NCBI GenBank assembly: GCA_015231405.1
Contig: JADGBR010000001.1
Span: 5,859 to 69,858 of the forward strand
Direction of reading: 5' to 3'
DNA: 64,000 nucleotides
Origin: Candidatus Omnitrophota bacterium
GTDB lineage: Bacteria; Omnitrophota; Gorgyraeia; Tantalellales; Tantalellaceae
Of this stretch, positions 3,118-62,814 are shown piece after piece. Every line of letters starts with the position of its first letter. Position 1 is the stretch's first letter. Below the pieces are notes generated by a model that was given only the letters and a program-made list of their open reading frames with translations, searched no databases and was not told where the DNA came from. Position numbers and translations under genes: made by a program.

Positions 3118-3159
3118 TTTACCCGATAGCGGATATAGGAACCGTTGATACTTTTACTA

Positions 3160-3187
3160 AACGCTAACCGCTAACCGCTGTCCGCTG
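3160..3187. repeat. degenerate heptamer tandem array (AACGCTA ACCGCTA ACCGCTG TCCGCTG)
   Basis: Four consecutive 7-nt units read directly in the intergenic spacer. Confidence 0.7.
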
Positions 3188-6658: not shown

Positions 6659-7219
6659 ATGCAAATACTCAATCTTGAGAAAATAGGTCCGCTTGTTCTC
6701 GAAAGGAATAAACGGGTGAAACGTATCGTTCTCACCCGGAAAAATCCGGGGGAGACAAGAGTTAAGGTCCCGGCCAGGTTATCGTTCGAGGAGACAAAGA
6801 ACATTCTTTCCAGGAACACTGACTGGATAATGAGATTCCTGTCGAAAGTGGACAGGGCAGAAAAGGCGCATAGCTCCCTTGAACTTCTGGAGATCACGCC
6901 GGTCGAGGCCTCCCGCAGGCTGATATCCAGGTCGGTGGTTCTGGCGGATAAATTCGGTTTTTCATTCCGGAAGATCTATGTCAAAAATCTCAACCGAGCC
7001 TGGGGGACCTGTTCCCCAAGGAATAACATAACCTTGAACAGGACCCTGGCGAGGCTTCCCGATGAGCTTCTGGACTACGTTATCCTCCATGAGCTTATTC
7101 ACACGAGGGTGAAAGACCATTCGGCGGTGTTCTGGGATGAGTTCAAAAAGGTCCTGCCGGACGCGAAAGAGCTGAACAGAAAAATAAAGAAATACCAGCT
7201 ACATCTTATCAGGGTATAG
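6659..7219 (+). CDS. DUF45/YgjP-like metal-dependent hydrolase (HExxH)
   Basis: C-terminal LLDYVILHELIHTRVKDHS motif characteristic of the YgjP/DUF45 (WLM-like) family. Confidence 0.55.
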   Translation: MQILNLEKIGPLVLERNKRVKRIVLTRKNPGETRVKVPARLSFEETKNILSRNTDWIMRFLSKVDRAEKAHSSLELLEITPVEASRRLISRSVVLADKFGFSFRKIYVKNLNRAWGTCSPRNNITLNRTLARLPDELLDYVILHELIHTRVKDHSAVFWDEFKKVLPDAKELNRKIKKYQLHLIRV

Positions 7220-8396: not shown

Positions 8397-8424
8397 TACA
8401 TGTGGTAGCGAACCACACTAATAC

Positions 8425-9789
8425 ATGGAAAAATCAGTATCGCTCAGGTATGTTTTTTTTATTCTCCCGGTGATCTTATGGTCATTCCAGGGGCCATGCG
8501 TGTACGCGATCGAAGGGACTCCCGGCAAGATCCAGCTTCCGGACGGCTCAGTCTATGAAGGGAACACCAGGGACGGGGTATACGAAGGCAAGGGAAAATA
8601 TTCCTGGCCAGGAGGTGACGTCTACGAAGGCGAATTCAAGGAGGGCGTGGCCCAGGGGCGAGGGACCTATAAATGGAAAAATGGCGGCCTTTATGAGGGA
8701 GAGTTCGCTCTAGACGAGATGGCGGGGAAAGGAAAAGGGGTTTACATTTCTCCTTCAGGTGAAAGATATGAAGGGGATTTCGAAGACGGCGCGCCCGACG
8801 GCAGAGGAGTTCTCGTTAAGGAGAACGGCGACAGGTATGAAGGGGAGTTCCAAAGGGGCTTTATGACCGGCGAGGGTGTCTACACCGATACAGAAGGCAA
8901 CCGCTACGAAGGAAAATTTCTTAGGGGGATCTTCGCAAATAACAGGGGGAAGCTCACGATAAAAAGCGGTGACGTTTACATAGGTGAAATTAAGAATGGG
9001 AAGCCCAACGGGACATGTATCTGGCAGGGGGCTAACGGCGAACGGTATGAGGGAGAATTCAGGGATGGTACGCTCCTGGGGCAAAAGACCCTGTTCCTCA
9101 TGAACGGCGGAAAATTCAAAGGAAGGATCGAGAACGATCTGCCCCAGGGTAAGGGGATCCTCACCAAACAGGATGGGGACAAATACGAGGCTGATTTCGA
9201 TAAGGGCGAGAGAAAAGGCGACGCTAAGTTGACCAGAGGGAACGGGGACGTTTACAAAGGGCCTTTAAAGAACTGGCTCATGAACGGAAAGGGGCGTTTG
9301 GAGCTTCAAGGCGGGGACGTTTACGAGGGTGATTTTGTCGACGGGGTAATAGAGGGCAGGGGTAGATACATTTCAAAGAATGGTAACACGTATGTAGGCG
9401 ATTTCTCCAAGGGGTATCCCAACGGGTCAGGCGAGTTGACCAGTATGAACGGGGACGTTTATAAAGGAATTTTCAAGAACGGAGTTATGTGGGGGAAAGG
9501 TTCGTATACCTGGAAGAATAAGAGCGTTTACGAGGGCGATTTTATTAACGGCCTTCCTCACGGCAGGGGTATCCTCATCTGGGAGAACGGCGACATATAC
9601 GAAGGCCAGTTCAGCGAAGGGAAACAGAACGGCAAGGGTGTTTATATAGGTATAGACGGGACAAGGTACGACGGCGAGTTCAGGGATAACCGTTTCCATG
9701 GCAAGGGCGTTTACTTCGATATTTCCGGCGAGAAATTCGAAGGTGAGTTCAGCTTTGGCGAATACATGGGTAAACAGCAGAAAAATTGA
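8425..9789 (+). CDS. MORN repeat protein, secreted
   Basis: Signal peptide then ~18 tandem ~23-aa YEGEF.DG...G.G units (MORN motif). Confidence 0.8.
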   Translation: MEKSVSLRYVFFILPVILWSFQGPCVYAIEGTPGKIQLPDGSVYEGNTRDGVYEGKGKYSWPGGDVYEGEFKEGVAQGRGTYKWKNGGLYEGEFALDEMAGKGKGVYISPSGERYEGDFEDGAPDGRGVLVKENGDRYEGEFQRGFMTGEGVYTDTEGNRYEGKFLRGIFANNRGKLTIKSGDVYIGEIKNGKPNGTCIWQGANGERYEGEFRDGTLLGQKTLFLMNGGKFKGRIENDLPQGKGILTKQDGDKYEADFDKGERKGDAKLTRGNGDVYKGPLKNWLMNGKGRLELQGGDVYEGDFVDGVIEGRGRYISKNGNTYVGDFSKGYPNGSGELTSMNGDVYKGIFKNGVMWGKGSYTWKNKSVYEGDFINGLPHGRGILIWENGDIYEGQFSEGKQNGKGVYIGIDGTRYDGEFRDNRFHGKGVYFDISGEKFEGEFSFGEYMGKQQKN

Positions 9790-9928: not shown

Positions 9929-10375
9929 ATGAAATTCGGTCTTATCGTTGTGCTTGTCATGGTCTTGTGTTTACCGTTCGTCGCGGCGACTTCTTCTTTC
10001 GGGGACGCGGCGGATCTTCTGAAGCAGGGACTGCTTGGAGCGGGTACGGGCGCCGCGGCCAGCGCCGTAGGTAAAGGTAATGCAGGGACAGGCGCTCTTG
10101 TCGGAGCCGGCGTCGGAATTCTTGGGAACACTGTTTTAGACAGCATAACCAACAAACCCGCGCCCCAGCCTCAATACCAGCAGGCTCCCGTAGTTTATCA
10201 GCAAGCCCCGGTACAGTACCAGCAGGCGCCGGTACAATACCAGCAGCAGGCCCCGTATCAGCAGTCCAAAGACGCGTATTCGACTGGGTACGAGGATGGG
10301 TACAGCAACGGTTATAAGGCGGGTTATACGGCAGGATATAAAGAAGGCCTTCAGGAAGCTTACAAAAAGGAATGA
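9929..10375 (+). CDS. glycine-zipper (YMGG-like) secreted/lipoprotein-like protein with Q-rich YQQAPV repeats
   Basis: Hydrophobic N-terminus, GAGTGAAASAVGKGNAGTGALVGAGVGILG glycine zipper, then tandem YQQAPVQ repeats encoded by a 21-nt DNA repeat (10180..10265). Confidence 0.5.
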   Translation: MKFGLIVVLVMVLCLPFVAATSSFGDAADLLKQGLLGAGTGAAASAVGKGNAGTGALVGAGVGILGNTVLDSITNKPAPQPQYQQAPVVYQQAPVQYQQAPVQYQQQAPYQQSKDAYSTGYEDGYSNGYKAGYTAGYKEGLQEAYKKE

Positions 10376-10821: not shown

Positions 10822-12056
10822 GGAGGACAAAGTTATGGCAAAAGCGAAATTTGAAAGAAATAAACCGCATATGAACATAGGGACGATCGGACATGTTGAC
10901 CATGGGAAGACATCGCTGACATCCGTGATAACTATGTATCTCGCCAATAAAGGCATGGCGGAAAGAAGGAACTATGACACGATCGACAAGGCTCCGGAAG
11001 AAAGGGAAAGAGGCATAACGATCGCGGTCGCGCATGTTGAGTATGAGACCGTGAAAAGGCATTATGCGCACATAGATTGTCCGGGTCACGCTGACTACAT
11101 CAAGAACATGATAACGGGCGCGGCGCAGATGGACGGGGCTATACTGGTAGTGTCGGCCGCGGACGGTCCGATGCCGCAGACGAGGGAGCACATACTTCTT
11201 GCCAGGCAGGTCAACGTGCCTGCGATAGTCGTGTGTATGAATAAAGTGGACCAGGTAGACGATCCGGAGCTTTTGGACCTTGTGGAGCTTGAGGTGAGGG
11301 AGCTGTTGAATAAGTACGGTTTCCCCGGCGACACGACTCCGATAATAAAGGGAAGCGCGCTAAAGGCGCTTGAGGTTGAAGGAGCGGTCGACAGCCCGCA
11401 CTGCAAATTCATCCAGGAGCTGATGGACGCGTGCGACGCGTTCATACCGCAGCCGGTCCGTGAAATAGAGAAGCCGTTCCTGATGCCGATAGAGGACATA
11501 TTCAGCATAACGGGAAGAGGCACCGTCGCCACCGGCAGGATCGAGAGGGGCCAGGTTAAGGTCGGCGAGGAAATAGAGATAGTAGGAATAAAGGACACGG
11601 TCAAGTCGGTAGTCACGGGAGTCGAGATGTTCAGGAAGATACTTGACTCGGGTCAGGCCGGAGATAATGTCGGGATACTTTTAAGGGGTATAGATAAGAC
11701 GAACCTGGTAAGAGGGCAGGTATTAGCCGCGCCGGGTTCGATAAAGCCGCACAAGAGGTTCAAGGCGTCGATATACATACTGTCGAAAGAGGAAGGCGGA
11801 AGACATACGCCGTTCTTCGCGGGATACAGGCCGCAGTTCTACATAAGGACGACGGACGTGACGGGTATGACGAAGCTGCCCGCGGGCGTGGAGATGGTAA
11901 TGCCGGGCGACAACATAGCGCTCGAGATAGAGTTGATAACTCCCGTCGCGCTCGAGAAAGAGCTGAGGTTCGCGATAAGGGAAGGCGGTCATACGGTAGG
12001 GGCCGGAGTTATATCGGAGATTTTGGAATAAGCTCTCAGCCATCAGCTGAAAGCTA
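10822..12056. repeat. tuf-containing duplicated segment, copy 1 (~1.2 kb, near-identical to 26131..27365)
   Basis: Identical 398-aa products and identical antisense ORFs; identity runs from the AGGAGGAC RBS through the GCTCTCAGCCATCAGCTGAAAGCT trailer. Confidence 0.85.
10835..12031 (+). CDS. tuf: elongation factor Tu (copy 1)
   Basis: GHVDHGKT P-loop, [12 protein letters not shown] motifs; 398 aa. Confidence 0.97.
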
Positions 12057-12074
12057 AAAAGATACGGAGCAAAC

Positions 12075-26130: not shown

Positions 26131-27365
26131 AGGAGGACTTGTTATGGCAAAAGCGAAATTTGAAAGAAATAAACCGCATATGAACATAGGGACGATCGGA
26201 CATGTTGACCATGGGAAGACATCGCTGACATCCGTGATAACTATGTATCTCGCCAATAAAGGCATGGCGGAAAGAAGGAACTATGACACGATCGACAAGG
26301 CTCCGGAAGAAAGGGAAAGAGGCATAACGATCGCGGTCGCGCATGTTGAGTATGAGACCGTGAAAAGGCATTATGCGCACATAGATTGTCCGGGTCACGC
26401 TGACTACATCAAGAACATGATAACGGGCGCGGCGCAGATGGACGGGGCTATACTGGTAGTGTCGGCCGCGGACGGTCCGATGCCGCAGACGAGGGAGCAC
26501 ATACTTCTTGCCAGGCAGGTCAACGTGCCTGCGATAGTCGTGTGTATGAATAAAGTGGACCAGGTAGACGATCCGGAGCTTTTGGACCTTGTGGAGCTTG
26601 AGGTGAGGGAACTGTTGAATAAGTACGGTTTCCCCGGCGACACGACTCCGATAATAAAGGGAAGCGCGCTAAAGGCGCTTGAGGTTGAAGGAGCGGTCGA
26701 CAGCCCGCACTGCAAATTCATCCAGGAGCTGATGGACGCGTGCGACGCGTTCATACCGCAGCCGGTCCGTGAAATAGAGAAGCCGTTCCTGATGCCGATA
26801 GAGGACATATTCAGCATAACGGGAAGAGGCACCGTCGCCACCGGCAGGATCGAGAGGGGCCAGGTTAAGGTCGGCGAGGAAATAGAGATAGTAGGAATAA
26901 AGGACACGGTCAAGTCGGTAGTCACGGGAGTCGAGATGTTCAGGAAGATACTTGACTCGGGTCAGGCCGGAGATAATGTCGGGATACTTTTAAGGGGTAT
27001 AGATAAGACGAACCTGGTAAGAGGGCAGGTATTAGCCGCGCCGGGTTCGATAAAGCCGCACAAGAGGTTCAAGGCGTCGATATACATACTGTCGAAAGAG
27101 GAAGGCGGAAGACATACGCCGTTCTTCGCGGGATACAGGCCGCAGTTCTACATAAGGACGACGGACGTGACGGGTATGACGAAGCTGCCCGCGGGCGTGG
27201 AGATGGTAATGCCGGGCGACAACATAGCGCTCGAGATAGAGTTGATAACTCCCGTCGCGCTCGAGAAAGAGCTGAGGTTCGCGATAAGGGAAGGCGGTCA
27301 TACGGTAGGGGCCGGAGTTATATCGGAGATTTTGGAATAAGCTCTCAGCCATCAGCTGAAAGCTG
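26131..27365. repeat. tuf-containing duplicated segment, copy 2
   Basis: See copy 1; one synonymous difference noticed (GAG at 11300..11302 vs GAA at the corresponding codon). Confidence 0.85.
26144..27340 (+). CDS. tuf: elongation factor Tu (copy 2)
   Basis: Protein identical to copy 1; canonical position after fusA. Confidence 0.97.
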
Positions 27366-27382
27366 TTAGCTGTTAGCTAAAC
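27341..27382. repeat. degenerate heptamer tandem array (GCTCTCA GCCATCA GCTGAAA GCTGTTA GCTGTTA GCTAAAC)
   Basis: Six 7-nt GC....A units immediately after the tuf stop; the shorter homolog after tuf copy 1 is at 12032..12059. Confidence 0.7.
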
Positions 27383-30468: not shown

Positions 30469-30927
30469 ATGCTCGCTACATCAACAGCAAAAGCGAAATG
30501 GGTCAGGATATCGTGGCGCAAGGTAGGGTTGGTACTTGCGCTTATAAAAGGAAAAACGGTAGATAAAGCTAACGCGATACTTGAAGCTACGAATAAAAGA
30601 GCTACCGTGCCCGTCAGAAAGGTCATCATGTCGGCGTTCGCGAATATCAACCACGACCGGCAGGAAAAGCTTCTGGAAAAAGAGGTTGTTGTCAAAACCA
30701 TTAAGGCAGATGACGGCCCTATGTTAAAAAGGTATAGAGCCGCCACGATGGGAAGAGCAACGCCTATACGGCACAGAACCGCACATATTTCGGTTCAACT
30801 CGAGGCCGTTGAAAAGATCGAAAAAACTGAAAAAAACGAAAAAACTGAAAAAGCCGATAAGGCCGAAAATACCGTGAAAAAACCATTAAAAGCCGTAGGT
30901 ACAACAAAAAAATCGGAGAAAAAATAA
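30469..30927 (+). CDS. rplV: 50S ribosomal protein L22 (with K/E-rich C-terminal extension)
   Basis: L22 core plus EKIEKTEKNEKTEKADKAENTVKK tail encoded by short tandem DNA repeats. Confidence 0.9.
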   Translation: MLATSTAKAKWVRISWRKVGLVLALIKGKTVDKANAILEATNKRATVPVRKVIMSAFANINHDRQEKLLEKEVVVKTIKADDGPMLKRYRAATMGRATPIRHRTAHISVQLEAVEKIEKTEKNEKTEKADKAENTVKKPLKAVGTTKKSEKK

Positions 30928-42116: not shown

Positions 42117-42152
42117 GTCATACACGGGCATACACGGGAGAAATGAGAGATT

Positions 42153-42827: not shown

Positions 42828-42851
42828 TTTCTCTCAAATCGAGTTATTGAA

Positions 42852-42888
42852 AAGGACGTTTGTTAATAGCAAACGTCCTTTTTATTTG
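42852..42888 (+). terminator. rho-independent terminator of the ribosomal super-operon
   Basis: AAGGACGTTTG / CAAACGTCCTT 11-bp stem, 7-nt loop, followed by TTTTATTTG. Confidence 0.8.
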
Positions 42889-43009
42889 TGCGCCCGGCAG
42901 GGCGCACTTGATGCCGTAGAACGTTTGTGGCACTACATGCCACAAGACAGACGATGTTTTTGGGCCTTCGGATTGAATGTGCCGGGCATTTACGTTATAA
43001 TAACAAATT

Positions 43010-45642: not shown

Positions 45643-45670
45643 GTGGTTCGTTGATCGTGGTTCGTGGTTC
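45643..45670. repeat. degenerate heptamer tandem array (GTGGTTC GTTGATC GTGGTTC GTGGTTC)
   Basis: Read directly; inverted partner CGAACCACG at ~45705. Confidence 0.7.
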
Positions 45671-45750
45671 GGGAAGAAAATTGATCATACGTTATATTTG
45701 TTCAAACGAACCACGCATCACGATCCACGAATGTGACTAAGGAGTTGTCA

Positions 45751-47490: not shown

Positions 47491-47546
47491 GTGTGGTTCC
47501 CGCCTTCGCCAGGGCTTCGGCGGGCAGGCGTGATTCGTGTTTCGTC
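47491..47546. repeat. dispersed ~50-nt structured element, copy A (GTGGTTCCCGCCTTCGCCAGGGCTTCGGCGGGCAGGCG...)
   Basis: About 85 percent identical to 49144..49200; contains CCTGCC...GGCAGG inverted repeat. Confidence 0.7.
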
Positions 47547-47606
47547 TGGAAAGGTTGGATACGGTGCCGAATCACGAACCACGAACGGGTAATTGTTAAT
47601 GGTGTT

Positions 47607-48251
47607 ATGAGGATGGATAAAAAGAAAACGCAAAAGATATATAAGGTTTTAACGGAGAACTACTTCCATGAGGAGGCGTTCCTTGTGAATTCTAATCCTT
47701 TCCAGCTGCTTGTCGCTACGATACTTTCGGCGCAGTGTACGGATAAGAGGGTAAATATGGTGACTCGGGACCTGTTTAAGAAATACAGGACCGTCAAGGA
47801 TTACGCCTCGGCTGACCAAACAGCTTTTGAGAAAGATATAAGGTCTACGGGATTTTACAGGAATAAAGCTAAGAACATAATATCCGCGGCAAATATAATA
47901 ATAAAGCAATACGGCGGAAAGGTGCCGAATACGATGGATGAGTTGGTGACTTTGCCTGGAGTGGCCAGGAAAACGGCTAATATCGTGCTTTTTCACGGTT
48001 ACGGGAAGCGCGAAGGTATTGCCGTAGACACCCATGTCAAGAGAGTCTCTTACCGTCTTGGGATGACAGGCGAGACCGATCCTGTAAAGATAGAAAGGGA
48101 CCTTATGGCGCTGTTCAGCGAGGATAAATGGGGACGTTTGAACAATCTAATTATAGAGCACGGCCGTAAGATCTGCGACGCGCGTAAGCCATTGTGCACG
48201 GAGTGTGTTCTTGAGAAGTTATGCCCGAAGGCCGGAGTTGATGAAAAATAG
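47607..48251 (+). CDS. nth: endonuclease III
   Basis: HhH-GPD fold and C-terminal [4Fe-4S] cluster CDARKPLCTECVLEKLCP. The ORF-track N-terminus (47484..) is encoded by the repeat element, so the start is placed at MRMDKKK. Confidence 0.85.
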   Translation: MRMDKKKTQKIYKVLTENYFHEEAFLVNSNPFQLLVATILSAQCTDKRVNMVTRDLFKKYRTVKDYASADQTAFEKDIRSTGFYRNKAKNIISAANIIIKQYGGKVPNTMDELVTLPGVARKTANIVLFHGYGKREGIAVDTHVKRVSYRLGMTGETDPVKIERDLMALFSEDKWGRLNNLIIEHGRKICDARKPLCTECVLEKLCPKAGVDEK

Positions 48252-48285: not shown

Positions 48286-48327
48286 GAATATTGAATTCAG
48301 AATCCAGGATCCAGAATACCGAATGAG
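48286..48327. repeat. degenerate heptamer tandem array (GAATATT GAATTCA GAATCCA GGATCCA GAATACC GAATGAG)
   Basis: Six 7-nt units immediately upstream of the SIMPL gene RBS. Confidence 0.7.
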
Positions 48328-49131: not shown

Positions 49132-49142
49132 GGAGGGTTTTC

Positions 49143-49976
49143 GTGGTTCGTGATCCGTGGTCCCTGCCTTCGCCAAGGCTACGGCGGGCAGGCGGGGTTC
49201 GTTATTTTCTGGTTGTTTGTCTGGCAGCTCTAGCGGGGCTGTGTTCCGGTTGCGCGAAAGAGGCGTCCAGCGAGAACAATGTCTATCTGGTCAGGTCGGT
49301 CGCGGACGGCGATACGATAGAGCTACAGGACGGCAGGAGAGTCCGGTATATAGGGATCGATACTCCTGAAACGAGGAATAAGGTCGGAGGGCAATGGGTA
49401 TACGATCCCGAAGAATACGCTGAAGACGCTAAAAAATTCAACGAGTCCCTTGTCGGCGGGAACAAGGTCAGGCTTGAATTTGATGCGGAGCGAAAAGATA
49501 AATACGGCCGGGATCTCGCGTTCGTTTACACCGACAACGGCCTTATGGCCAACGAGGAGCTGGTCAGGGAAGGATATTCGCTTGTGTATTATCTTTTGCC
49601 TAACAGAAAACATCTTGAAGGGTTCATGGAAGCCCAGAGGACTGCCATGGAAAATAAGGCCGGTTTGTGGAAAGGGATAAAAGTCATAACTCCGGACGAA
49701 GCGGGGAAATTATCCTGGGGATATTGCGTGGTCAGGGGCAGGGTGAATTACAGCGGAAGGGAAGGTAGAGGTTCTTTCACCATAGGGTTTGATGGAGAAA
49801 AAGAGAATTCATTAAAATGCATTATTCCCGCGAGGAATCTTCCATTGTTTAAAGAATTCGGAGTGGATCCCGCCATAGATTACACCGGAAAAAATGTCGA
49901 AATAACGGGAAAGGTAAAGAAAGGCGGAAGTCCTGTTTTAATGATCGTGCATCCTTATCAAATTAGGGTCCTCTGA
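49143..49976 (+). CDS. thermonuclease (SNase-like), exported
   Basis: SNase core RSVADGDTIEL...RYIGIDTPE...GRDLAFVY; hydrophobic N-terminus; the 5' end overlaps repeat element copy B so the true start is uncertain. Confidence 0.65.
   Translation: MVRDPWSLPSPRLRRAGGVRYFLVVCLAALAGLCSGCAKEASSENNVYLVRSVADGDTIELQDGRRVRYIGIDTPETRNKVGGQWVYDPEEYAEDAKKFNESLVGGNKVRLEFDAERKDKYGRDLAFVYTDNGLMANEELVREGYSLVYYLLPNRKHLEGFMEAQRTAMENKAGLWKGIKVITPDEAGKLSWGYCVVRGRVNYSGREGRGSFTIGFDGEKENSLKCIIPARNLPLFKEFGVDPAIDYTGKNVEITGKVKKGGSPVLMIVHPYQIRVL
49144..49200. repeat. dispersed ~50-nt structured element, copy B
   Basis: CGTGGTTCGTGATCCGTGGTCCCTGCCTTCGCCAAGGCTACGGCGGGCAGGCGGGGTTCG. Confidence 0.7.
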
Positions 49977-50191: not shown

Positions 50192-51454
50192 ATGAGGCAG
50201 ACAATAGTAGAGAAAATTTTCTCCCAGCATTCGGGTAAAAGGGCGAAGGTCGGGGATATTATCATAGCGGATGTTGATTTCTGTTTCGGTCAGGATGGGA
50301 CCAGCGCTCTCATTATCGACAGCTTCCGGAAAATGGGCGTTGAAGCCGTCCACGACAGGAATAAATTCTGCATGGTCATAGATCATTCCTCGCCAAGCCC
50401 TAATATAGGTGTTTCCACTATACATTCCAAGATGAGGACTTTCGCGAGGGAGTTCGGGCTCAAGGTGTATGACGTGGGCTCGGGGGTATGCCATCAGATA
50501 GTCCCGGAGAACGGTTATGTCACTGCGGGAGATCTTATTATTGGAGCCGATTCCCATACGTGCACATACGGGGCCGTCAATGCTTTTTCGGCAGGTGTGG
50601 GGTCCACGGACCTGGCCATATCACTCGCCACTGGAAAGAACTGGTTCAAGGTGCCTGAGACCATTAAGGTCGTACTTAAAGGAAAACTTGGAAAAGGTGT
50701 TTACGCTAAGGACATAATACTCCACATCATAGGCGATATGACGGCCGGCGGTGCTAATTACAGGGCCATCGAATTCAGCGGTGAGGTCATCGACGAGCTC
50801 AGCGTAGAGTCGCGTTTTACGATCGCGAACATGGCCGTCGAGATGGGCGCTAAGTGCGGCATTATGGAAGCCGACCGGAAGACCATAGCCTGGGTAAAAA
50901 AACACTCAAGCCGCGACCCGAAACCCGTAGAGCCCGACGAGGACGCGAAATATATCGAGATAAGGGAATATGAACTTTCGATGCTCGCCCCGCAGGTCGC
51001 GAAACCTCATTCCGTGGATAATGTATCCAACATTGAAGACATTGGGAATACTCCGATAGACCAGGTTTACATAGGCACGTGCACGAACGGCAGGCTTGAA
51101 GACCTTGAGATAGCCGCTAAGATACTTAAGGGCAATAAGGTGGCTCCTTACCTGAGACTTATAGTGACTCCGGCTTCGAAATGGATATATCTGGACGCCA
51201 TGAAGAAAGGATATATTGACATATTCGTGGACGCTGGTGCGATAGTGAATAATCCGGGCTGCGGCCCTTGCGTGGGCACTCACCAGGGCGTACTCGCTGA
51301 CGGGGAGAACGCGTTATCCACGGCGAACAGGAATTTTAAGGGTCGCATGGGGAACCCGAACGCGAATATATACCTTGGAAGCCCGGCCGTCGCGGCCGCT
51401 ACAGCTATCGCCGGAAGAATAGCTGATCCGAGAGAATATAAACGGAAATTATAA
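50192..51454 (+). CDS. leuC: 3-isopropylmalate/(homo)aconitate dehydratase large subunit, short archaeal-type
   Basis: 420 aa, aconitase family with Fe-S cysteines (CTNGR, GCGPCVG). Confidence 0.85.
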   Translation: MRQTIVEKIFSQHSGKRAKVGDIIIADVDFCFGQDGTSALIIDSFRKMGVEAVHDRNKFCMVIDHSSPSPNIGVSTIHSKMRTFAREFGLKVYDVGSGVCHQIVPENGYVTAGDLIIGADSHTCTYGAVNAFSAGVGSTDLAISLATGKNWFKVPETIKVVLKGKLGKGVYAKDIILHIIGDMTAGGANYRAIEFSGEVIDELSVESRFTIANMAVEMGAKCGIMEADRKTIAWVKKHSSRDPKPVEPDEDAKYIEIREYELSMLAPQVAKPHSVDNVSNIEDIGNTPIDQVYIGTCTNGRLEDLEIAAKILKGNKVAPYLRLIVTPASKWIYLDAMKKGYIDIFVDAGAIVNNPGCGPCVGTHQGVLADGENALSTANRNFKGRMGNPNANIYLGSPAVAAATAIAGRIADPREYKRKL

Positions 51455-51458
51455 GTTT

Positions 51459-51535
51459 AGCTATCAGCTTTCAGCCTTCAGCTGTCAGCTTTAAGAAGAA
51501 ACATTAATGCTGAAAGCTGATAGCTGAAAGCTAAC
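51459..51535. repeat. eleven-unit heptamer array forming a 17-bp perfect inverted repeat (AGCTATCAGCTTTCAGC ... GCTGAAAGCTGATAGCT)
   Basis: AGCTATC AGCTTTC AGCCTTC AGCTGTC AGCTTTA AGAAGAA ACATTAA TGCTGAA AGCTGAT AGCTGAA AGCTAAC; lies between leuC and leuD. Confidence 0.75.
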
Positions 51536-51547
51536 AGGGAGGATAAA

Positions 51548-52051
51548 GTGGGCAATCACGTTCATAGGCTGAAAATACAGAATGACATTAATACCGACTA
51601 TGTCATTTCCGGAAGATATAAGTTCAAGATACAGGACGAAAAAGAACTGGCAAAATATATTTTCGAGGATCTTGATCCTGGTTTTGCCAAAAAGATAAAG
51701 GCCGGGGATTTTCTCGTCTCCGGTGATAATTTCGGCTGCGGTTCTTCCCGCGAACAGGCTCCCGTAGCCCTTAAAGCCAGCGGGATACAGGCTGTTCTAG
51801 CCAAGAGCTTCTCCAGGATATTCTACCGCAACGCATTTAACGTAGGACTCTGCCTTATCGAATGTGAAACAAGGTTCATAGACGACATGGACGAGATCGA
51901 GATCGACCTCAAAAGGAACGTCGTTAAGAACATAACCAAAGGGCTTAATATCGAGATCAAACCCGTACCGAAAATAATGATGGATTTTTTGTCCGTAGGC
52001 GGGGCCATCGAGTATTTCAAAAAAGAAAAAGGATTCGGTAAGTTCAATTGA
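51548..52051 (+). CDS. leuD: 3-isopropylmalate dehydratase small subunit
   Basis: GDNFGCGSSREQAP...NAFNVGL swivel-domain signature; GTG start. Confidence 0.85.
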   Translation: MGNHVHRLKIQNDINTDYVISGRYKFKIQDEKELAKYIFEDLDPGFAKKIKAGDFLVSGDNFGCGSSREQAPVALKASGIQAVLAKSFSRIFYRNAFNVGLCLIECETRFIDDMDEIEIDLKRNVVKNITKGLNIEIKPVPKIMMDFLSVGGAIEYFKKEKGFGKFN

Positions 52052-52973: not shown

Positions 52974-54110
52974 ATGAGCGAACTTGGCGGCATGAAAAGG
53001 GTCCTTATCTTTTACGTATCCAGGAATTCCGGGCATTATAACGCGGCAAAGTCGATCGAGAAAGCTATTCTGGGTTTCGGGAAAGGCATTGAGATAAGGA
53101 CGGTAAACGCCCTTGATTACGCTAATCCGATACTCGGGAAAATTCTCGCGAAAGCTTACGCGGAAATATTGAAAAAAAGGCCCCAGTTTTGGGGGAATAT
53201 TTACGATAATCCCGTCGTTCTTGAGAAGACGCGTAAGACAAGGGAGCGGTTCGCGAAACGTGGATTCCCGAAAATTCAGAAACTGGTAGGGTCTTTCAAA
53301 CCTGGTGCAGTGGTATGTACTCAGGCTTATCCCTCAGGTTTGATGGCTTATTATAAAAGGAGATCTGGCGATAAGATACCTCTTATCGCTGTTCTCACTG
53401 ACCATGCGCCGCATTCGTACTGGATCTTCCCCGAGACGGATATTTATGTCGTCCCTTCGGATGACACCGCCGCGATGATGGTGAAAAAAGGCGTGCCGAG
53501 GGAAAAAATACGGGTGTTGGGGATACCTGTAGACAACAAGTTCCAGAACAGTCATGACAGATCCCTTTTGCGTGACAGGTTCGCGCTTTATCCCGGGAAA
53601 AGGACTGTGCTCATAATGGGCGGCAACCAGGGGCTGGGCGCACTCGAGGAAATTGTGGACGCCTTTCAGGGACGCGGAGGCCTAAATTATCAGCTCATGG
53701 TCGTAGCGGGAAGGAACAAGAGACTTTACAGGCGTATAAAGAACAGGTATATGAAGGGGAACGGCGGGAATATAAAACTATATCCCTACTCAGAGAACAT
53801 CGACGAGATGATGGAAGCGTCCGACGCGATAATAACAAAGGCCGGCGGGATAACTACCGCCGAAGCTTTGGCTAAAGGGGTACCCATATTTATTGTCGAC
53901 CCTATCCCGGGACAGGAGCGGATGAACACCGACTTTCTTGTGAAAGAGGGGGCGGCGGTCGAAATAAAGAATAAAGAAGCTCTTATAGAAGCCGTGAACT
54001 CGCTTTTTGACACAAAAGGGGCGCTTGAAAAAATGGCCGCGAATTCAAAAAGAATATCGAAGGCAGACAGTTCTACTCGAGTCGCGGAACTGGTAATAAG
54101 GGGTTGTTGA
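52974..54110 (+). CDS. GT28-family diacylglycerol glycosyltransferase (MGDG synthase/UgtP-like)
   Basis: N-terminal VLIFYVSRNSGHYNAAKSIEKA and C-terminal GT-B fold layout typical of the MGDG synthase family. Confidence 0.6.
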   Translation: MSELGGMKRVLIFYVSRNSGHYNAAKSIEKAILGFGKGIEIRTVNALDYANPILGKILAKAYAEILKKRPQFWGNIYDNPVVLEKTRKTRERFAKRGFPKIQKLVGSFKPGAVVCTQAYPSGLMAYYKRRSGDKIPLIAVLTDHAPHSYWIFPETDIYVVPSDDTAAMMVKKGVPREKIRVLGIPVDNKFQNSHDRSLLRDRFALYPGKRTVLIMGGNQGLGALEEIVDAFQGRGGLNYQLMVVAGRNKRLYRRIKNRYMKGNGGNIKLYPYSENIDEMMEASDAIITKAGGITTAEALAKGVPIFIVDPIPGQERMNTDFLVKEGAAVEIKNKEALIEAVNSLFDTKGALEKMAANSKRISKADSSTRVAELVIRGC

Positions 54111-54988: not shown

Positions 54989-55044
54989 GCTTCGTGGTTC
55001 GGGATTCGTGGTTCGCGAGGAAAAAGCTGATAGCTGAAAGGTGA
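54989..55044. repeat. degenerate heptamer array (GCTTCGT GGTTCGG GATTCGT GGTTCGC GAGGAAA AAGCTGA TAGCTGA AAGGTGA)
   Basis: Contains both the GTGGTTCG and AGCTGATAGCTGAAAG words seen elsewhere. Confidence 0.7.
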
Positions 55045-55047
55045 GAT

Positions 55048-55740
55048 ATGAAAGATACTTTAAAAAAAACGATCGCGCTGATACCGTCTTATAACGAGGC
55101 CAGGGCTATTGGGGATGTTGTCAGAGAACTCGTCAATATGGGCGTTACCGCGCTTGTAATAGACGACGGGTCACAGGACGACACGGAAAAGATAGCGCGC
55201 GATAACGGCGCTATCGTCCTTAAGAATAAGCAGAATATGGGGAAAGGGAGATCTGTCCGCGAAGGATTGAACTACGCCATAGCGAGACCGGAGCATGAAT
55301 GGGCGGTATTGATGGACGGCGACGGCCAGCATCATCCCGGCGATATCCCGGGTCTTATCGAGGCCGCTGTCAGGGAGAACGCCGATATGGTCCTCGGTAA
55401 CCGTATGGCCCAAACAAATAATATGCCGATCGTAAGGCTCCTGACCAACAAGTTCACATCATTCGTCGTATCATCACTCGCCGGGCATAAGATACACGAT
55501 TCACAGTGCGGTTTCAGGCTCATAAGGGTCAGCGCTTTTAAGTATGTCGAGCTTATCGCGGATAAATACGACATTGAGTCCGAGATGATAATAGAAGCGG
55601 CCAGAAAGAAAATGAAGATAGTATCAGCTCCCGTAAGGACCATATACGGCGACGAAGTTTCAAAGATACATCCGTTCAAGGATACGATCAGGTTCATCAA
55701 GCTTGTACAGAGGTATAGGCGGGCGAAGAAGGGTAGATAG
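55048..55740 (+). CDS. family 2 glycosyltransferase (polyprenyl-phosphate sugar transferase-like)
   Basis: IPSYNE...DDGSQDDT...DGD motifs of GT2 (DPM1/ArnC-like). Confidence 0.75.
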   Translation: MKDTLKKTIALIPSYNEARAIGDVVRELVNMGVTALVIDDGSQDDTEKIARDNGAIVLKNKQNMGKGRSVREGLNYAIARPEHEWAVLMDGDGQHHPGDIPGLIEAAVRENADMVLGNRMAQTNNMPIVRLLTNKFTSFVVSSLAGHKIHDSQCGFRLIRVSAFKYVELIADKYDIESEMIIEAARKKMKIVSAPVRTIYGDEVSKIHPFKDTIRFIKLVQRYRRAKKGR

Positions 55741-55923
55741 GGGATCCACATGGAGTCATCCCGGACGCGAGCCTCGCGAGCGAGCCGGGATCACATGAAA
55801 ATAATATTTTTATTTGATCCCCGCTTTCGCGGGGATGACAGTTTATACTTTGATGTTTAAATAGTTGTTAACAAAACCGGTAGATTGTACTATAATCGAA
55901 CAAACGAATAACAGGAGGACGAT

Positions 55924-56427: not shown

Positions 56428-56439
56428 GCAGATAGCTAG

Positions 56440-56640
56440 TACACACAGGCGATCGAAAGATCTTAATAGGGAAGTCCGTTAGATCCGGACACGGTCCCGC
56501 CGCTGTTACCGGGGACGAAAGCCCGCTAGTCGATTTATGACTAAAGAGGCCACTATCCGAAAGGATGGGAAGGCCGGGGCAAGTAGAATGATCCGGAAGT
56601 CAGAAGACCTGCCTGGTGTGACAATAGATGTACGGGTCGT
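56440..56640 (+). promoter_or_regulatory. cobalamin (B12) riboswitch aptamer
   Basis: AATAGGGAAGTCCG...GATCCGG...GGTCCCGCCGCTGTTACCGGGGA...GCCACT... and B12 box AGTCAGAAGACCTGCC at 56598..56613, matching the RF00174 consensus. Confidence 0.8.
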
Positions 56641-56688
56641 GTGAAACCCGTATCTATCGAGTTAGTGAGGGTAATAAAAACGGATTAT

Positions 56689-56727
56689 CCCCTGGTATCT
56701 TAAATTGGTGCCAGGGGATTTTTTTTA
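56689..56727 (+). terminator. riboswitch expression-platform terminator
   Basis: CCCCTGG / CCAGGGG stem followed by ATTTTTTTT; sits between aptamer and receptor start. Confidence 0.7.
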
Positions 56728-56761
56728 CCCGGCTTATGCGGACAAAATTAAAGGAGAAGAG

Positions 56762-58921
56762 ATGAAAAAGACGTCGTTATTTTTGATCGGGATGCTAACC
56801 TTTTCGGCCACAGCTTTCGCGGGGACAGACTCAGCGAACAAGTTCCGGGTAACGGATATACTCAAAACCCCGGCCAAAGCTATCTTAGCTCCGGTTAACG
56901 GCGGCGGCCTCGTCGATCTTGTCCTAAAACCCACGGACCTCCTCTTCGCCCCGGTGATCGACTTAGGCGAAGTAGTTGTGACCCCGTCCCGGACGCCCGA
57001 GTATACGTATAATGTTAACAAAAATGTTACGGTAATTAATAACGACGACATCCGTAACGCTAAACCAAGATATTTGCAGGATGTGCTTGCCAGGGAAAAT
57101 AATGTCGTAATGAATGGGCTTCTTAATAACGCCAAGGATAATAAGCTGGACCTCAGGGGGTTTGGGGACTCGGCTAATATGAATTATCTTGTGCTCGTGG
57201 ACGGAAGGAGAACTAATCAGATAGATCTTTCCGGGCCGGATCTCGCGCAGGTGGACGTGAATTCCATCGACAGGATCGAGATAACGCGTGGTCCCGGCAC
57301 TGTCCTTTACGGGGATAACGCGACCGGCGGGGTTATCAACATAATCACTAAAAAACACGTTGACGGGCATCATATTGAATATTCTCAGGAGATAGGGAGT
57401 TACAAATATTTCAAGGAGTACGTCTCGGCCAGCGGCCGTGAAGAGTTCATGGATTACTATGTCAGTTATTCGCCTCAAAGCTCACGGGGTTACAGACTTA
57501 ACAGTTCCTATAAAGCTGACGATATATGTTCGAATATGACAATTAGACCCGCGGAGTATTTTAATATGGGCCTTTCTTCGGGTTTCCACAGGGACTGGTA
57601 CGGTCAGCCAGGGGCTCTTTACGATGGCAATATCCAGAGCGACGGCAGGGACGGGACGCGTTTTCCCGATTCCAAGGCCAAAGCTGAAGATCAGTATTTT
57701 ACGGTTGATCCTCAATTGATGGGGGAGATAAACGAACATGAGATCGTGCTGTCTTCGCTTATGTCATACAGGTTGCGGCGCGCCTCGTCACGTGATGTGA
57801 GCTTCAACGTTTATGAGACGGGGCATAATATCAGCTCTTACGATCTAAAGCCGAAGTGCGAGATCAATTCGAGCTTTCTGGATGATAGTGTCGAGAATAA
57901 GCTTGTGGCCGGCACTGATTATTTTTACGCAGGGGATCTGGCATCTTCCGGCGACGTAGCGTTCACCAAATCCGAACTCAAAGCGGAAAAGAGGACTTTC
58001 GGTGTATATGCCTCTGATAATGTAATGATCAATAGAAGGTTGATCCTTAACGGCGGGGCCCGCGTCGAATGGGCCGGTTATTCATTTGACCAGTCAAAGC
58101 CCGCTCCCGGGCTTAACGAGCGCAAACTCCAGGATGCTGCTTTCGAGGCCGGGATCGGGTATAAATATAACGAAAAGTCCCAGATATACTTTGACTCATC
58201 GAGGTCATACAGGTTTCCTGGTACTGACGAGTATTTCCAGTCGGCCTACGAGTCTTTCGACTGGTGGACGTTCACGACAAGGGTGTTCCCCTCAACGTTG
58301 AACACCGATCTCGAACAACAGACCGGCAATAATTACGAGTTGGGGATAAAGGACCATTCGTTCGAGTTTTTCAGGTTGAACGCGGATTATTATCTGATGA
58401 ATATCAGAAATGAAATACTGCTCGATCCGTATACTCCCGAAAATCCCGTTAACGATAAGAACGTTAATTATCCTCGCACTACTCACCATGGCCTGGAATT
58501 TGACGCAAAGATAGATATTTTCGATAAGGCAACCCCCTTTGTGAAGTACACCTACGAGAAAGCGTTCTTTGTCGGCGGTAAATACGCATCAAAGACAATC
58601 CCGCTGGTTCCGGAGAACAAGATAGTAACGGGAGTGGATATTGCACCCGTTGACGGTTTGGACCTGTCATATACGGTCAACTTTCTCGGATCACGTTATG
58701 CCGCGAATGATATGACAAATACGGCGTCCAGGATAAAATCCCATGTGACAAGCGACATATCGGCTTCATATGAGTATTCCAACGTCAGGATCTTCGGCGC
58801 GATCAGGAATATCTTGAACCAAAAATATCTGACCAACGCTACAAAGAACTTCGCCGGCAATATAGCGTTCTATCCCGCTCCCGGGATCAATTTCGAATGC
58901 GGTATAAGTGTAGTATTTTGA
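56762..58921 (+). CDS. TonB-dependent outer-membrane receptor (BtuB-like)
   Basis: AAAGGAGAAGAG RBS before ATG 56762, signal peptide, plug motif IDRIEITRGPGTVLYGDNATGGVINIITK, C-terminal aromatic residue (F). Confidence 0.85.
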   Translation: MKKTSLFLIGMLTFSATAFAGTDSANKFRVTDILKTPAKAILAPVNGGGLVDLVLKPTDLLFAPVIDLGEVVVTPSRTPEYTYNVNKNVTVINNDDIRNAKPRYLQDVLARENNVVMNGLLNNAKDNKLDLRGFGDSANMNYLVLVDGRRTNQIDLSGPDLAQVDVNSIDRIEITRGPGTVLYGDNATGGVINIITKKHVDGHHIEYSQEIGSYKYFKEYVSASGREEFMDYYVSYSPQSSRGYRLNSSYKADDICSNMTIRPAEYFNMGLSSGFHRDWYGQPGALYDGNIQSDGRDGTRFPDSKAKAEDQYFTVDPQLMGEINEHEIVLSSLMSYRLRRASSRDVSFNVYETGHNISSYDLKPKCEINSSFLDDSVENKLVAGTDYFYAGDLASSGDVAFTKSELKAEKRTFGVYASDNVMINRRLILNGGARVEWAGYSFDQSKPAPGLNERKLQDAAFEAGIGYKYNEKSQIYFDSSRSYRFPGTDEYFQSAYESFDWWTFTTRVFPSTLNTDLEQQTGNNYELGIKDHSFEFFRLNADYYLMNIRNEILLDPYTPENPVNDKNVNYPRTTHHGLEFDAKIDIFDKATPFVKYTYEKAFFVGGKYASKTIPLVPENKIVTGVDIAPVDGLDLSYTVNFLGSRYAANDMTNTASRIKSHVTSDISASYEYSNVRIFGAIRNILNQKYLTNATKNFAGNIAFYPAPGINFECGISVVF

Positions 58922-62779: not shown

Positions 62780-62814
62780 AGTTGTCAGTTGTCAGTTGTC
62801 GGTTACTGGTTGGT
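62780..62814. repeat. degenerate heptamer array (AGTTGTC x3, GGTTACT, GGTTGGT)
   Basis: Read directly after the TonB-like gene stop. Confidence 0.7.

Follow-up and report, generated by a model that had tools for sequence, protein, structure and literature searches.

Intergenic heptanucleotide repeats, mostly palindromic, between co-directional genes of an Omnitrophota bacterium

What occupies the gap between leuC and leuD at positions 51459–51535 of this stretch of DNA, and why do similar seven-letter words recur in gene-boundary spacers along the whole 64-kb stretch (hereafter the window)? A preliminary description, made from the sequence alone, had listed ten such spacers as period-7 tandem arrays and had likened them to the short tandemly repeated repetitive (STRR) sequences of heterocystous cyanobacteria. 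Our analysis found an array in each of the ten spacers, and the period-7 observation is real and statistically strong, although it had been partly misdescribed. The element is not of a new kind but is a new example of intergenic heptanucleotide repeats, which are here mostly palindromic and intercistronic in the Omnitrophota. This identity, as STRR-like sequences or long simple sequence repeats (SSRs), is firm, while function at the RNA level is the weakest step of our interpretation.

Period-7 arrays in the spacers of the window and of related loci

Tandem Repeats Finder (TRF) was run on the whole window for tandem periods and returned 12 period-7 rows at eight of the ten sites, with row starts at 3157, 27361, 45643, 47568, 48293, 49140, 51459, 51509, 54987 and 62780 and an extra row at 53963 (2.3 copies). 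The sites following the two copies of the elongation factor gene tuf (12032 and 27341) both fitted AGCTNNNAGCTNNNAGC with at most one mismatch, and matches of this kind, counted as overlapping on both strands, numbered 26 in the window against 0.69 expected and were confined to four spacers. Altogether about 9 of the 42 non-coding spacers of the window hold period-7 arrays. Words were indeed found to recur at distant loci, as GTGGTTCG occurred nine times at six loci of the window (1.4 expected), but AGCTGATAGCTGAAAG was exact at two sites rather than the three first reported, with four further matches carrying two mismatches. At least five word families were present across the 10 window loci, and the arrays were not fragments of a single insertion sequence (IS) or repetitive extragenic palindromic (REP) consensus.

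A comparison of intergenic with coding sequence, proposed in the preliminary description as a check, was run on the window. The lag-7 match frequency in 4,974 nt of spacer was 0.297 (z 5.3 versus shuffles), and the signal returned at lag 14 (z 2.2) and lag 21 (z 4.0), while coding sequence (CDS) displayed a period-3 signal only. Strong arrays, defined by at least 80% identity over three periods, numbered five at period 7 in 4.8 kb of spacer compared to none in 200 dinucleotide shuffles; none were found at periods 5, 6 or 8–12 in the same spacer sequence and none in the 57.7 kb of CDS of the window. The units are degenerate, matching one another at 77–94%. Taken with the 12 TRF rows, these counts show a tandem unit within the 5–11-nt range of long SSRs that exceeds chance and, not being a multiple of three, is restricted to non-coding DNA.

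The same restriction was observed in a survey of 160 related loci together with the window (2.14 Mb), in which arrays were counted at 2.8 copies or more. Seven was the commonest tandem period, with 74 arrays in comparison to 41 of period 6, 35 of period 9 and 20 of period 8, and only 15 of the 74 lay in an open frame, while most random segments (762 of 1000) and most period-6 arrays (36 of 41) did. An inverted partner within 90 nt accompanied 26 of the 74 period-7 arrays; none of the 41 period-6 arrays had one, and among 400 random segments 7 did.

Inverted pairing and position between genes

The leuC–leuD spacer had been described as eleven direct units. It proved instead to consist of five units and four inverted units in two arrays around a 16-nt loop (Table 1), where the 3' arm repeats the 5' arm in reverse complement and both arms share one 7-nt register (56 nt apart) despite the non-repeat loop. 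Its predicted RNA fold had a free energy of -37.2 kcal/mol compared to -21.7 ± 3.1 for dinucleotide shuffles (z -4.9), and 0 of 200 shuffles were as stable. The element begins 4 nt past the stop codon of a leuC-like gene for an aconitase-family large subunit (50192–51454; Pfam Aconitase), and its 3' arm adjoins the Shine-Dalgarno (SD) site AGGGAGG of a leuD-like small-subunit gene (51548–52051; Pfam Aconitase_C) that starts with GTG at 51548.

The arrays at 45643 and 47568 were also confirmed as heptamer runs, but each is one arm of a hairpin whose inverted partner (45707–45732 and 47530–47545, respectively) had been missed. The mutS–mutL hairpin had a fold of -39.5 kcal/mol (z -4.1), and its arms mirror even variant units, with GTTGATC at 45650 lying opposite CGATCCA at 45721; unit variants mirrored between hairpin arms were also seen in the related locus L001 (ATTTC/GAAAT). 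Such mirroring indicates that paired arrays are true palindromes and not two unrelated arrays. The mutL–nth arms form a stem of 9+ pairs, weaker than the other two hairpins (z -0.2 over the whole 81 nt). Hairpins in relatives had fold z values of -2.8 to -8.5.

Two further sites were composite. The 54989–55044 array is in period 7 as reported, but contains two distinct arrays (TTCGTGG x4, then AGCTGAW x3), and the heptamers at 49143–49177 amount to only three units, the rest being a different GC-rich palindrome in the first codons of a lipoprotein open reading frame (ORF). The arrays at 3157, 48286, 54989 and 62780 have no inverted partner.

Table 1. Heptamer arrays and associated palindromes of the window
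Feature	Position	Strand	Units and context
5' arm, leuC–leuD hairpin	51459..51492	+	AGCTATC AGCTTTC AGCCTTC AGCTGTC AGCTTT; TRF period 7, 4.9 copies
Loop, leuC–leuD hairpin	51493..51508	+	AAGAAGAAACATTAAT; 16 nt, purine-rich, non-repeat
3' arm, leuC–leuD hairpin	51509..51535	+	GCTGAAA GCTGATA GCTGAAA GCTAAC; TRF 3.4 copies
5' arm, mutS–mutL hairpin	45643..45671	+	GTGGTTC GTTGATC GTGGTTC GTGGTTC G; TRF 4.1 copies; flanks MutS, MutL
3' arm, mutS–mutL hairpin	45707..45732	+	CGAACCA CGCATCA CGATCCA CGAAT; ends at mutL GTG start
mutL–nth hairpin	47530..47588	+	GTGATTC GTGTTTC GT, loop, CGAATCA CGAACCA CGAACGG
Array	49140..49163	+	TTC GTGGTTC GTGATCC GTGGTCC; three units, TRF 3.1 copies; overlaps SD-proximal GTG start of SNase lipoprotein ORF
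Solitary direct array	54989..55016	+	GCTTCGT GGTTCGG GATTCGT GGTTCGC; GTGGTTC family, TRF 4.1 copies; acyltransferase–GT2 spacer, no inverted partner
Forward AGCTGAW array	55025..55045	+	AGCTGAT AGCTGAA AGGTGAG
Array after tuf copy 1	12032..12059	+	GCTCTCA GCCATCA GCTGAAA GCTAAAA; directly past stop codon, upstream of rpmG
Array after tuf copy 2	27341..27382	+	First 24 nt as after tuf copy 1, then GCTGTTA GCTGTTA GCTAAAC; then rpsJ SD site
Degenerate direct array	48286..48327	+	GAATATT GAATTCA GAATCCA GGATCCA GAATACC GAATGAG; TRF 3.6 copies, 83%; no hairpin
Array	62780..62814	+	AGTTGTC x3 + GGTTACT GGTTGGT; TRF 94% matches; 3 nt past TonB-like stop codon
Array	3157..3187	+	AACGCTA ACCGCTA ACCGCTG TCCGCTG; TRF 93%; within 144-nt spacer
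29-nt GC-rich palindrome, copy 1	47502..47530	+	GCCTTCGCCAGGGCTTCGGCGGGCAGGCG; between GTGGTTC-type heptamers, GTGG in front
29-nt GC-rich palindrome, copy 2	49166..49194	+	Within N-terminal 22 codons of SNase ORF; GTGG in front

All genes of the window lie on the + strand, which is purine- and G-skewed, and the arrays sit in two stretches, namely the tuf/ribosomal-protein cluster and a long co-directional string comprising mutS, mutL, nth, SIMPL, SNase, leuC, leuD, lipB, MGDG synthase, lipid-A acyltransferase and GT2 genes. As first described, the arrays adjoin stop codons and ribosome-binding sites, falling between the stop codon and the next SD site of co-directional genes. The sole exception to a non-coding location is the 49140–49163 array, which overlaps the initial codons of an ORF. 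Every array-preceded gene of the window retains a canonical SD site; the 48286..48327 array runs into that of the SIMPL gene, and in the 55025..55045 array the last unit itself acts as the SD site (AGGTGA) of the gene that starts with ATG at 55048. Because the spacers lie inside co-directional gene strings, they are probably transcribed.

The array after tuf copy 1 forms a small AGCU-paired hairpin (dG -11.5, z -2.5). The two tuf copies (EF-Tu, 398 aa; 10835–12031 and 26144–27340) are followed by an identical first 24 nt past the stop codon (GCTCTCAGCCATCAGCTGAAAGCT), after which the arrays diverge and copy 2 carries two extra GCTGTTA units; the identity suggests gene conversion reaching into the array.

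Position just past stop codons, together with stable stem-loops, would suit transcription terminators or attenuators, and short-unit SSRs are known to cause phase variation in pathogens (PMC4692102), so that hypermutable contingency loci (variable number tandem repeats, VNTRs) switching the downstream genes were also considered. Both roles are very improbable in our judgement. No T-run followed any of the heptamer hairpins, the loops measured 16–35 nt, an SD site or start codon stood directly downstream, and a terminator scan of the window called no heptamer hairpin. Identity as an intrinsic (Rho-independent) terminator was rejected on these grounds, namely the lack of a U-tract, of a short loop and of a scan call, and with it the termination signal that had been offered as one possible role; without a U-tract, the stem-loop would not terminate transcription. 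Conventional hairpin-plus-T terminators occur elsewhere in the window, in the spacers 42828–43009 (after rplQ) and 55741–55923, both read directly, and at 56687 (from the scan). Moreover, the hairpins part genes that need co-expression (leuC/leuD, mutS/mutL), and the flanking genes are housekeeping genes rather than surface or virulence genes. As to unit counts, no change was found in seven near-identical pairs of phage contigs, which differed by 0–1 single nucleotide polymorphism with no indels and are hence uninformative.

At gathering thresholds, Rfam returned no family on any array, and its only matches were a cobalamin riboswitch and tRNAs. The riboswitch (90 bits, 56430–56630) lies upstream of a TonB-dependent receptor gene (56705–58921), an arrangement kept in locus L003 and other relatives. 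The spacer ahead of the gene for a MORN-repeat protein (8425–9789) contains, at 8402–8416, a mini-hairpin, GTGGTAGCGAACCAC, which consists of one unit pair from the GTGGTTC family, GTGGT/ACCAC. The rpoA–rplQ spacer (42119–42138) holds a perfect period-10 duplication (CATACACGGG x2) and no heptamers, while its orthologous spacer in L001 holds a 5.7-copy AAATATC heptamer array. Two coding repeats are in frame, one of period 21 (x3.6) at 10172–10246 in a Gly-zipper-like small protein and one of period 9/18 (GAAAAAAC-type) at 30810–30852, apparently within a ribosomal-protein gene; these periods are multiples of three, in contrast to the intergenic heptamers.

Host, turnover at orthologous junctions and reuse of words

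The preliminary description had argued from an unsplit rpoC that the host is not a cyanobacterium, and this was upheld. The rpoC gene is unsplit (1350 aa), and the best LeuC matches (70–73% identical) were to Candidatus Omnitrophota metagenome-assembled genomes (MAGs) or to bins auto-labelled 'uncultured Planctomycetia'. The gene order rpoA-rplQ-mutS-mutL-leuC-leuD-lipB-TonB receptor is common to the window, L001, L004 and L081 (12-gene synteny), and a reduced order, rpoA-leuC-leuD-lipB, was found in about 30 loci of the Omnitrophota, among them that of the completely sequenced Ca. Velamenicoccus archaeovorus. By protein similarity and gene order, the host is placed as a relative of the Omnitrophota, within the Planctomycetes-Verrucomicrobia-Chlamydiae (PVC) group. 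No strain-level relative was present in the genome and metagenome collections searched: the exact LeuC protein had no record, the nearest LeuC was 72–73% identical and metagenome contigs reached 72% at most.

Across the survey, period-7 arrays were concentrated in loci labelled Omnitrophota (24 in 501 kb); Bacillota loci held 7 in 374 kb, and a single array was found in 207 kb of Actinomycetota. One MAG each of the Peptococcaceae (L057), WOR-1 and Elusimicrobia also carried arrays. L057, a Bacillota genome, has four AAGTCWA-heptamer arrays in 21 kb (1626–1700, 2652–2686 and 6856–6939), among which are two inverted pairs. This pairing indicates that the heptamer-hairpin plan is not limited to the Omnitrophota.

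Orthologous junctions in syntenic loci were filled in some and empty in others. At leuC–leuD the window has its AGCTNTC hairpin, L001 a GTCGTTC hairpin and L003 a TCAGARR hairpin, while L004 has about 70 nt with no array and L081 and L002 have 15 nt each. The mutS–mutL junction holds a GTGGTTC hairpin in the window and a CAAATNN-type hairpin in L001 and no spacer in L004 or L081; mutL–nth holds a GTGRTTC hairpin in the window and a GTCGTTC hairpin in L001, compared to about 60 nt with no array in L004 and about 10 nt in L081. For both of these junctions L003 is not syntenic upstream and the L002 locus does not extend to the genes concerned. The acyltransferase–GT2 junction, with two arrays in 80 nt in the window, measures 17 nt in L001, 11 nt in L003, 2 nt in L002 and 0 nt in L004 and L081.

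Concatenated protein identities place the window as the outgroup, at 57–61% to all the others (61% to L001), while array-rich L001 is 70–72% identical to array-free L081 and L002. Set against these identities, the pattern of filled and empty junctions indicates that elements are gained and lost within lineages. The comparison thus presents lineage-specific gains and losses, on the timescale of genus or family divergence, of elements that were inserted into ancestrally tight junctions, past the stop codon and ahead of the SD site.

This outcome can also be interpreted as a neutral by-product, in which slippage and quasi-palindrome templating generate arrays that persist only where frameshifts are harmless and that are without function in DNA, RNA or protein. 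We regard this as possible, though on balance unlikely. It accommodates presence that varies among close relatives at the same junctions, even between the subunits of one enzyme, as well as words that differ between genomes, the lack of a universal core and the exclusion of arrays from ORFs. A bias of the DNA-polymerase footprint towards 7-nt slippage has furthermore been proposed (Mrazek 2007, to the extent that it is relayed in PMC4679880 and PMC4692102), and the same relayed account gives heptanucleotide repeats as the most abundant class of long SSR in many bacteria, intergenic and phylogenetically patchy. A neutral origin accounts less well for the recurrence of specific words at several loci within a genome, for the same AGCTGAW hairpins in unrelated phage contigs, for the steady size of about four units and steady stop-to-SD placement, and for units that are degenerate rather than freshly slipped.

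Word recurrence was most evident in L001, where three near-identical hairpins of about 60 nt, built of GTCGTTC heptamers, occupy consecutive junctions inside 5 kb (6950–7030, 11265–11330 and 11861–11920), with 21 of 22 positions of the left arm, GTCGTTCGTCGAT(A/C)GTCGTTCG, identical across copies. The L001 house word GTCGTTC is one base from the GTGGTTC of the window. When partners in one hairpin were left out, 11 of 59 within-genome word pairs were at a distance of one or less, in comparison to 104 of 2557 between-genome pairs. Each genome therefore reuses a few 'house' words at several junctions, and this recurrence, together with the L001 copies, indicates a dispersed repeat family and not independent slippage at each site.

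A dispersed family raises the alternative of miniature mobile elements, similar to REP doublets (REPINs) or to miniature inverted-repeat transposable elements (MITEs), that would be moved by a REP-associated tyrosine transposase (RAYT) or another Y1/HUH enzyme, with the periodicity serving for arm recognition. We consider this unlikely. The three L001 copies speak for it, as does the division of genomes into 'infested' and 'clean', and the hairpins resemble REPs and their larger assemblies, bacterial interspersed mosaic elements (BIMEs), in being dispersed imperfect palindromes between unidirectional ORFs, with genome-specific families and a presence that varies among relatives (PMC3733652, PMC3116915). 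REPs are transcribed as RNA hairpins (PMC3733652, PMC3116915), and by analogy the hairpins of the window may be as well. The dispersed, extragenic copies expected of REPs were observed, with several per 20–64 kb, all between co-directional ORFs, a copy number that applies at the scale of the window. REPs are, however, palindromes of 20–40 bp with 6–13-bp stems and a GTAG or CGTC tag and are associated with RAYTs, whereas the heptamer hairpins measure 60–90 nt, have periodic arms and end without either tag. Their arm length and unit number vary, no target-site duplication was found between filled and empty leuC–leuD junctions, and no transposase or RAYT was present among the window ORFs scanned against Pfam, a scan that covered the window outside the ribosomal-protein and rpoBC block.

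The GC-rich palindrome is a second element and may come closer to the REP definition. Its consensus, GCCTTCGCCARGGCTWCGGCGGGCAGGCG, has two copies in the window, both nested among GTGGTTC-type heptamers, and no such match arose in shuffles. In Opitutus terrae, a PVC bacterium, the GTAG tag of REP elements takes the form GTGG (PMC3733652). Since GTGG stands ahead of both copies and matches the Opitutus tag, the 29-nt palindrome may be a conventional REP, and the GTGGTTC heptamers may be related to its GTGG head, which we offer as a lead only. This GTGG-headed palindrome, inside GTGGTTC arrays, is also a point for the mobile-element alternative. The second copy and its heptamers fall in the first 22 codons of the SNase lipoprotein ORF, which has an SD site 5 nt ahead of its GTG start and a lipobox, LCSGC.

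The arrays share a period and not a word. CTGA was tried as a universal core and occurred in only 9 of 73 arrays; 4-nt palindromic cores, present in 22 of 73, were at about chance level. None of the published words (STRR1–3, GGGAATC, GGACCGG and the P6b classes) was found in the window arrays, and identity with published heptamer words was rejected accordingly. Two window families, TAGCTGA/AAGCTGA and CAACTGA, nevertheless differ by one mismatch per unit from TAACTGA, the repeat of marine Beggiatoaceae, some Cyanobacteria and Bacteroidetes (MacGregor 2015, PMC4679880). The former lies ahead of rpmG, rpsJ, leuD and the GT2 gene in the forward direction (12046, 27354, 51509 and 55025); AGTTGTC of the 62780 array, just past a stop codon, is the reverse complement of the latter. 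TAACTGA repeats are likewise present in 2–6 copies, lie forward just upstream of start codons, including those of ribosomal-protein genes, and give stops in all three frames. They differ in that Beggiatoa has essentially one word and a single inverted pair among 170 sets, as opposed to several words and common hairpins in the window, and in that repeat-bearing Beggiatoa leaders usually lack an SD site (PMC4679880), which is present at the four forward AGCTGAW arrays of the window. A 'three-frame stop cassette' was rejected as a general explanation, as it fits AGCTGAW (TGA every 7 nt) but fails for the GTGGTTC and GAATCCA arrays.

The exact 17-mer AGCTGATAGCTGAAAGC was found in 54 stretches of IMG/VR viral contigs (L281–L334) with 57–72% GC, mostly within a (GCTGAWA)n array ending 4–12 nt ahead of an ATG. 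In about 15 of these phage cases an inverted (TCAGCYN)n array lies upstream of (GCTGAWA)n, which is the same hairpin plan as 51459–51535. Example sites are L329 972–5331, L316 1686, L323 994 and L293 2283, and AGCTGAW-rich contigs include IMGVR_UViG_3300046697_000185 and 3300044798_000503. A 5-kb part of one 10-kb Mu/B3-like contig holds at least nine arrays of heptamers and also arrays of octamers (AGGGACCA). Judged by these matches, the AGCTGAW word family crosses very distant lineages. The 15-mer GTGGTTCGTGGTTCG gave mostly single matches in viral contigs, at about the number estimated by chance for the size of the collection, and was treated as noise. No paper was found on heptamer repeats in Omnitrophota or on an AGCTGAW array.

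The forward arrays suggest another alternative, in which the heptamers are mRNA-leader binding sites for a single-strand nucleic-acid-binding protein of the S1, cold-shock or CsrA type, acting in post-transcriptional or translational regulation as proposed for TAACTGA of the Beggiatoaceae. Its appeal lies in the near match to TAACTGA, in the forward AGCTGAW arrays directly upstream of four window starts, in the arrays that precede an ATG by 4–12 nt in over 15 phage contexts, where an obvious SD site is often missing, and in the same placement reported in PMC4679880; heptamers of Nostoc recF and recO alter reporter expression (bioRxiv 10.1101/2022.06.06.494920). Placement without an SD site ahead of the start was confined to the phage contigs, however, as every array-preceded window gene has one. 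At least five unrelated word families in 64 kb, and dozens across relatives, could not all be read by one sequence-specific protein, and many arrays are sequestered in hairpins. As a general account this is doubtful.

Known heptamer repeats and the reading of the arrays

The likeness to cyanobacterial STRR sequences held for unit length, copy number (3–6), intergenic site and the coexistence of several word families, as known from Calothrix and Nostoc/Anabaena, where few copies of tandem 7-nt units are dispersed between genes in several families per genome. The window differs in its Omnitrophota host and in the roughly one third of arrays paired in inverted orientation. The words reported in 1990 by Mazel et al. 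are said to be CCCCAGT (STRR1), TTGGTCA (STRR2) and CAACAGT (STRR3); sought in the window as three tandem units with up to three mismatches, these words gave no match.

The GGGNATC repeats that Rehm et al. (2015, PMC4692102) described in Xanthomonas and Nostoc resemble the window arrays in their intergenic period-7 excess, size of about four units, aligned ORFs, proximity to a stop or start codon (within 50 bp), occasional inverted pairing and turnover of length and sequence between species at the same junctions. They are mostly transcribed, and they are G-rich and G-quadruplex-forming (PMC4692102), whereas the window words are not G-tracts. The P6b stem-loop of the Nostoc tRNA-Leu(UAA) intron (TDNGATT or NNTGAGT; PMC4476775) offers a parallel for the hairpins, since each of its arms is a degenerate array of heptamers, 7-nt indels occur on the two sides of the stem, and one motif class has replaced another at the same site in different lineages, although it is confined to one locus within a group I intron and is not a dispersed intercistronic element. 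In Geobacter metallireducens, elements of four GGACCGG units (49 copies) and five MTYCTGA units (15 sites) are similarly dispersed, multicopy tandem heptamers, with one family having a CTGA core and one class drawn as a strand-switching (palindromic) site; they differ in their words and in that some copies are intragenic, and were proposed as regulator-binding or RNA elements (PMC2700814). Overall, the window matches the intergenic heptanucleotide class on every structural point and differs in phylum, words and the high share of palindromic pairs.

Our preferred reading, which we hold at about even strength, is that the arrays are STRR-like heptanucleotide repeats, largely palindromic and REP-like intercistronic elements that form mRNA stem-loops; the functional part is one that we infer. 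The plan of an element would be a run of three to five degenerate 7-nt units, a loop of 16–35 nt and a mirror-image run. Units may arise and homogenise by replication slippage that favours 7 nt and escapes mismatch repair. Loops of 7 bases are held to exceed recognition by MutS-type repair, and the window organism has intact mutS and mutL. Selection against frameshifts would keep arrays out of genes, inverted arms may arise or persist through hairpin-templated copying, and whole elements would be copied to new junctions within the genome. In spacers inside apparent operons, which are probably transcribed, a paired element would give a 20–35-bp imperfect stem-loop in the polycistronic mRNA. By analogy with REP/BIME stem-loops, this structure would most plausibly act as a 3'-exonuclease barrier or as a processing site for a double-strand RNase, and could thereby uncouple the stability or translation of adjacent cistrons. 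Solitary forward arrays by an SD site are perhaps merely a tolerated leader.

Several observations count against this reading. Slippage as the origin is undercut by the degeneracy of the units and the unchanged copy number in near-identical phage contigs, and slippage alone does not predict word reuse within a genome or AGCTGAW arrays in unrelated high-GC phage contigs; such reuse could reflect a sequence-specific partner. The arrays without an inverted partner fold no better than shuffles, and a hairpin role therefore cannot account for all arrays. Gain and loss between the genes of essential enzyme pairs (leuC/leuD) is as compatible with neutral or selfish elements as with functional ones, and transcription through the spacers, RNA folding in vivo and processing are all steps that we infer. 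More speculatively, the heptamer hairpins may be a distinct class of self-propagating intergenic elements common to PVC bacteria (Omnitrophota) and phages, with the 7-nt unit imposed by a dedicated non-RAYT protein (a binder of single-stranded DNA or RNA, a hairpin nuclease or a transposase) and with the CTGA-type words (WAGCTGA, CAACTGA, TAACTGA and MTYCTGA) forming a single family, spread by horizontal transfer, that adjusts translation or the processing of mRNA at gene junctions in different phyla; we rate this as rather improbable, slightly more so than the binding-site or mobile-element alternatives.

Heptamer spacers can also mislead gene callers. The SNase ORF takes its apparent start from a GTG within an array, and the nth (HhH-GPD) ORF as mechanically listed starts with GTG at 47484, within the last codons of mutL, and engulfs the whole mutL–nth hairpin spacer; its true start is likely an ATG at about 47599–47614.

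In summary, heptanucleotide repeats have been known from cyanobacteria since 1990 and as the dominant long-SSR class in scattered bacteria since 2007. The window adds the uncultured phylum Omnitrophota to their hosts and demonstrates that the arrays are often true palindromes filling otherwise tight operon junctions. Syntenic filled and empty junctions, together with phage contigs carrying the same words, provide a clean natural experiment on the gain, loss, spread and expression effect of these repeats.

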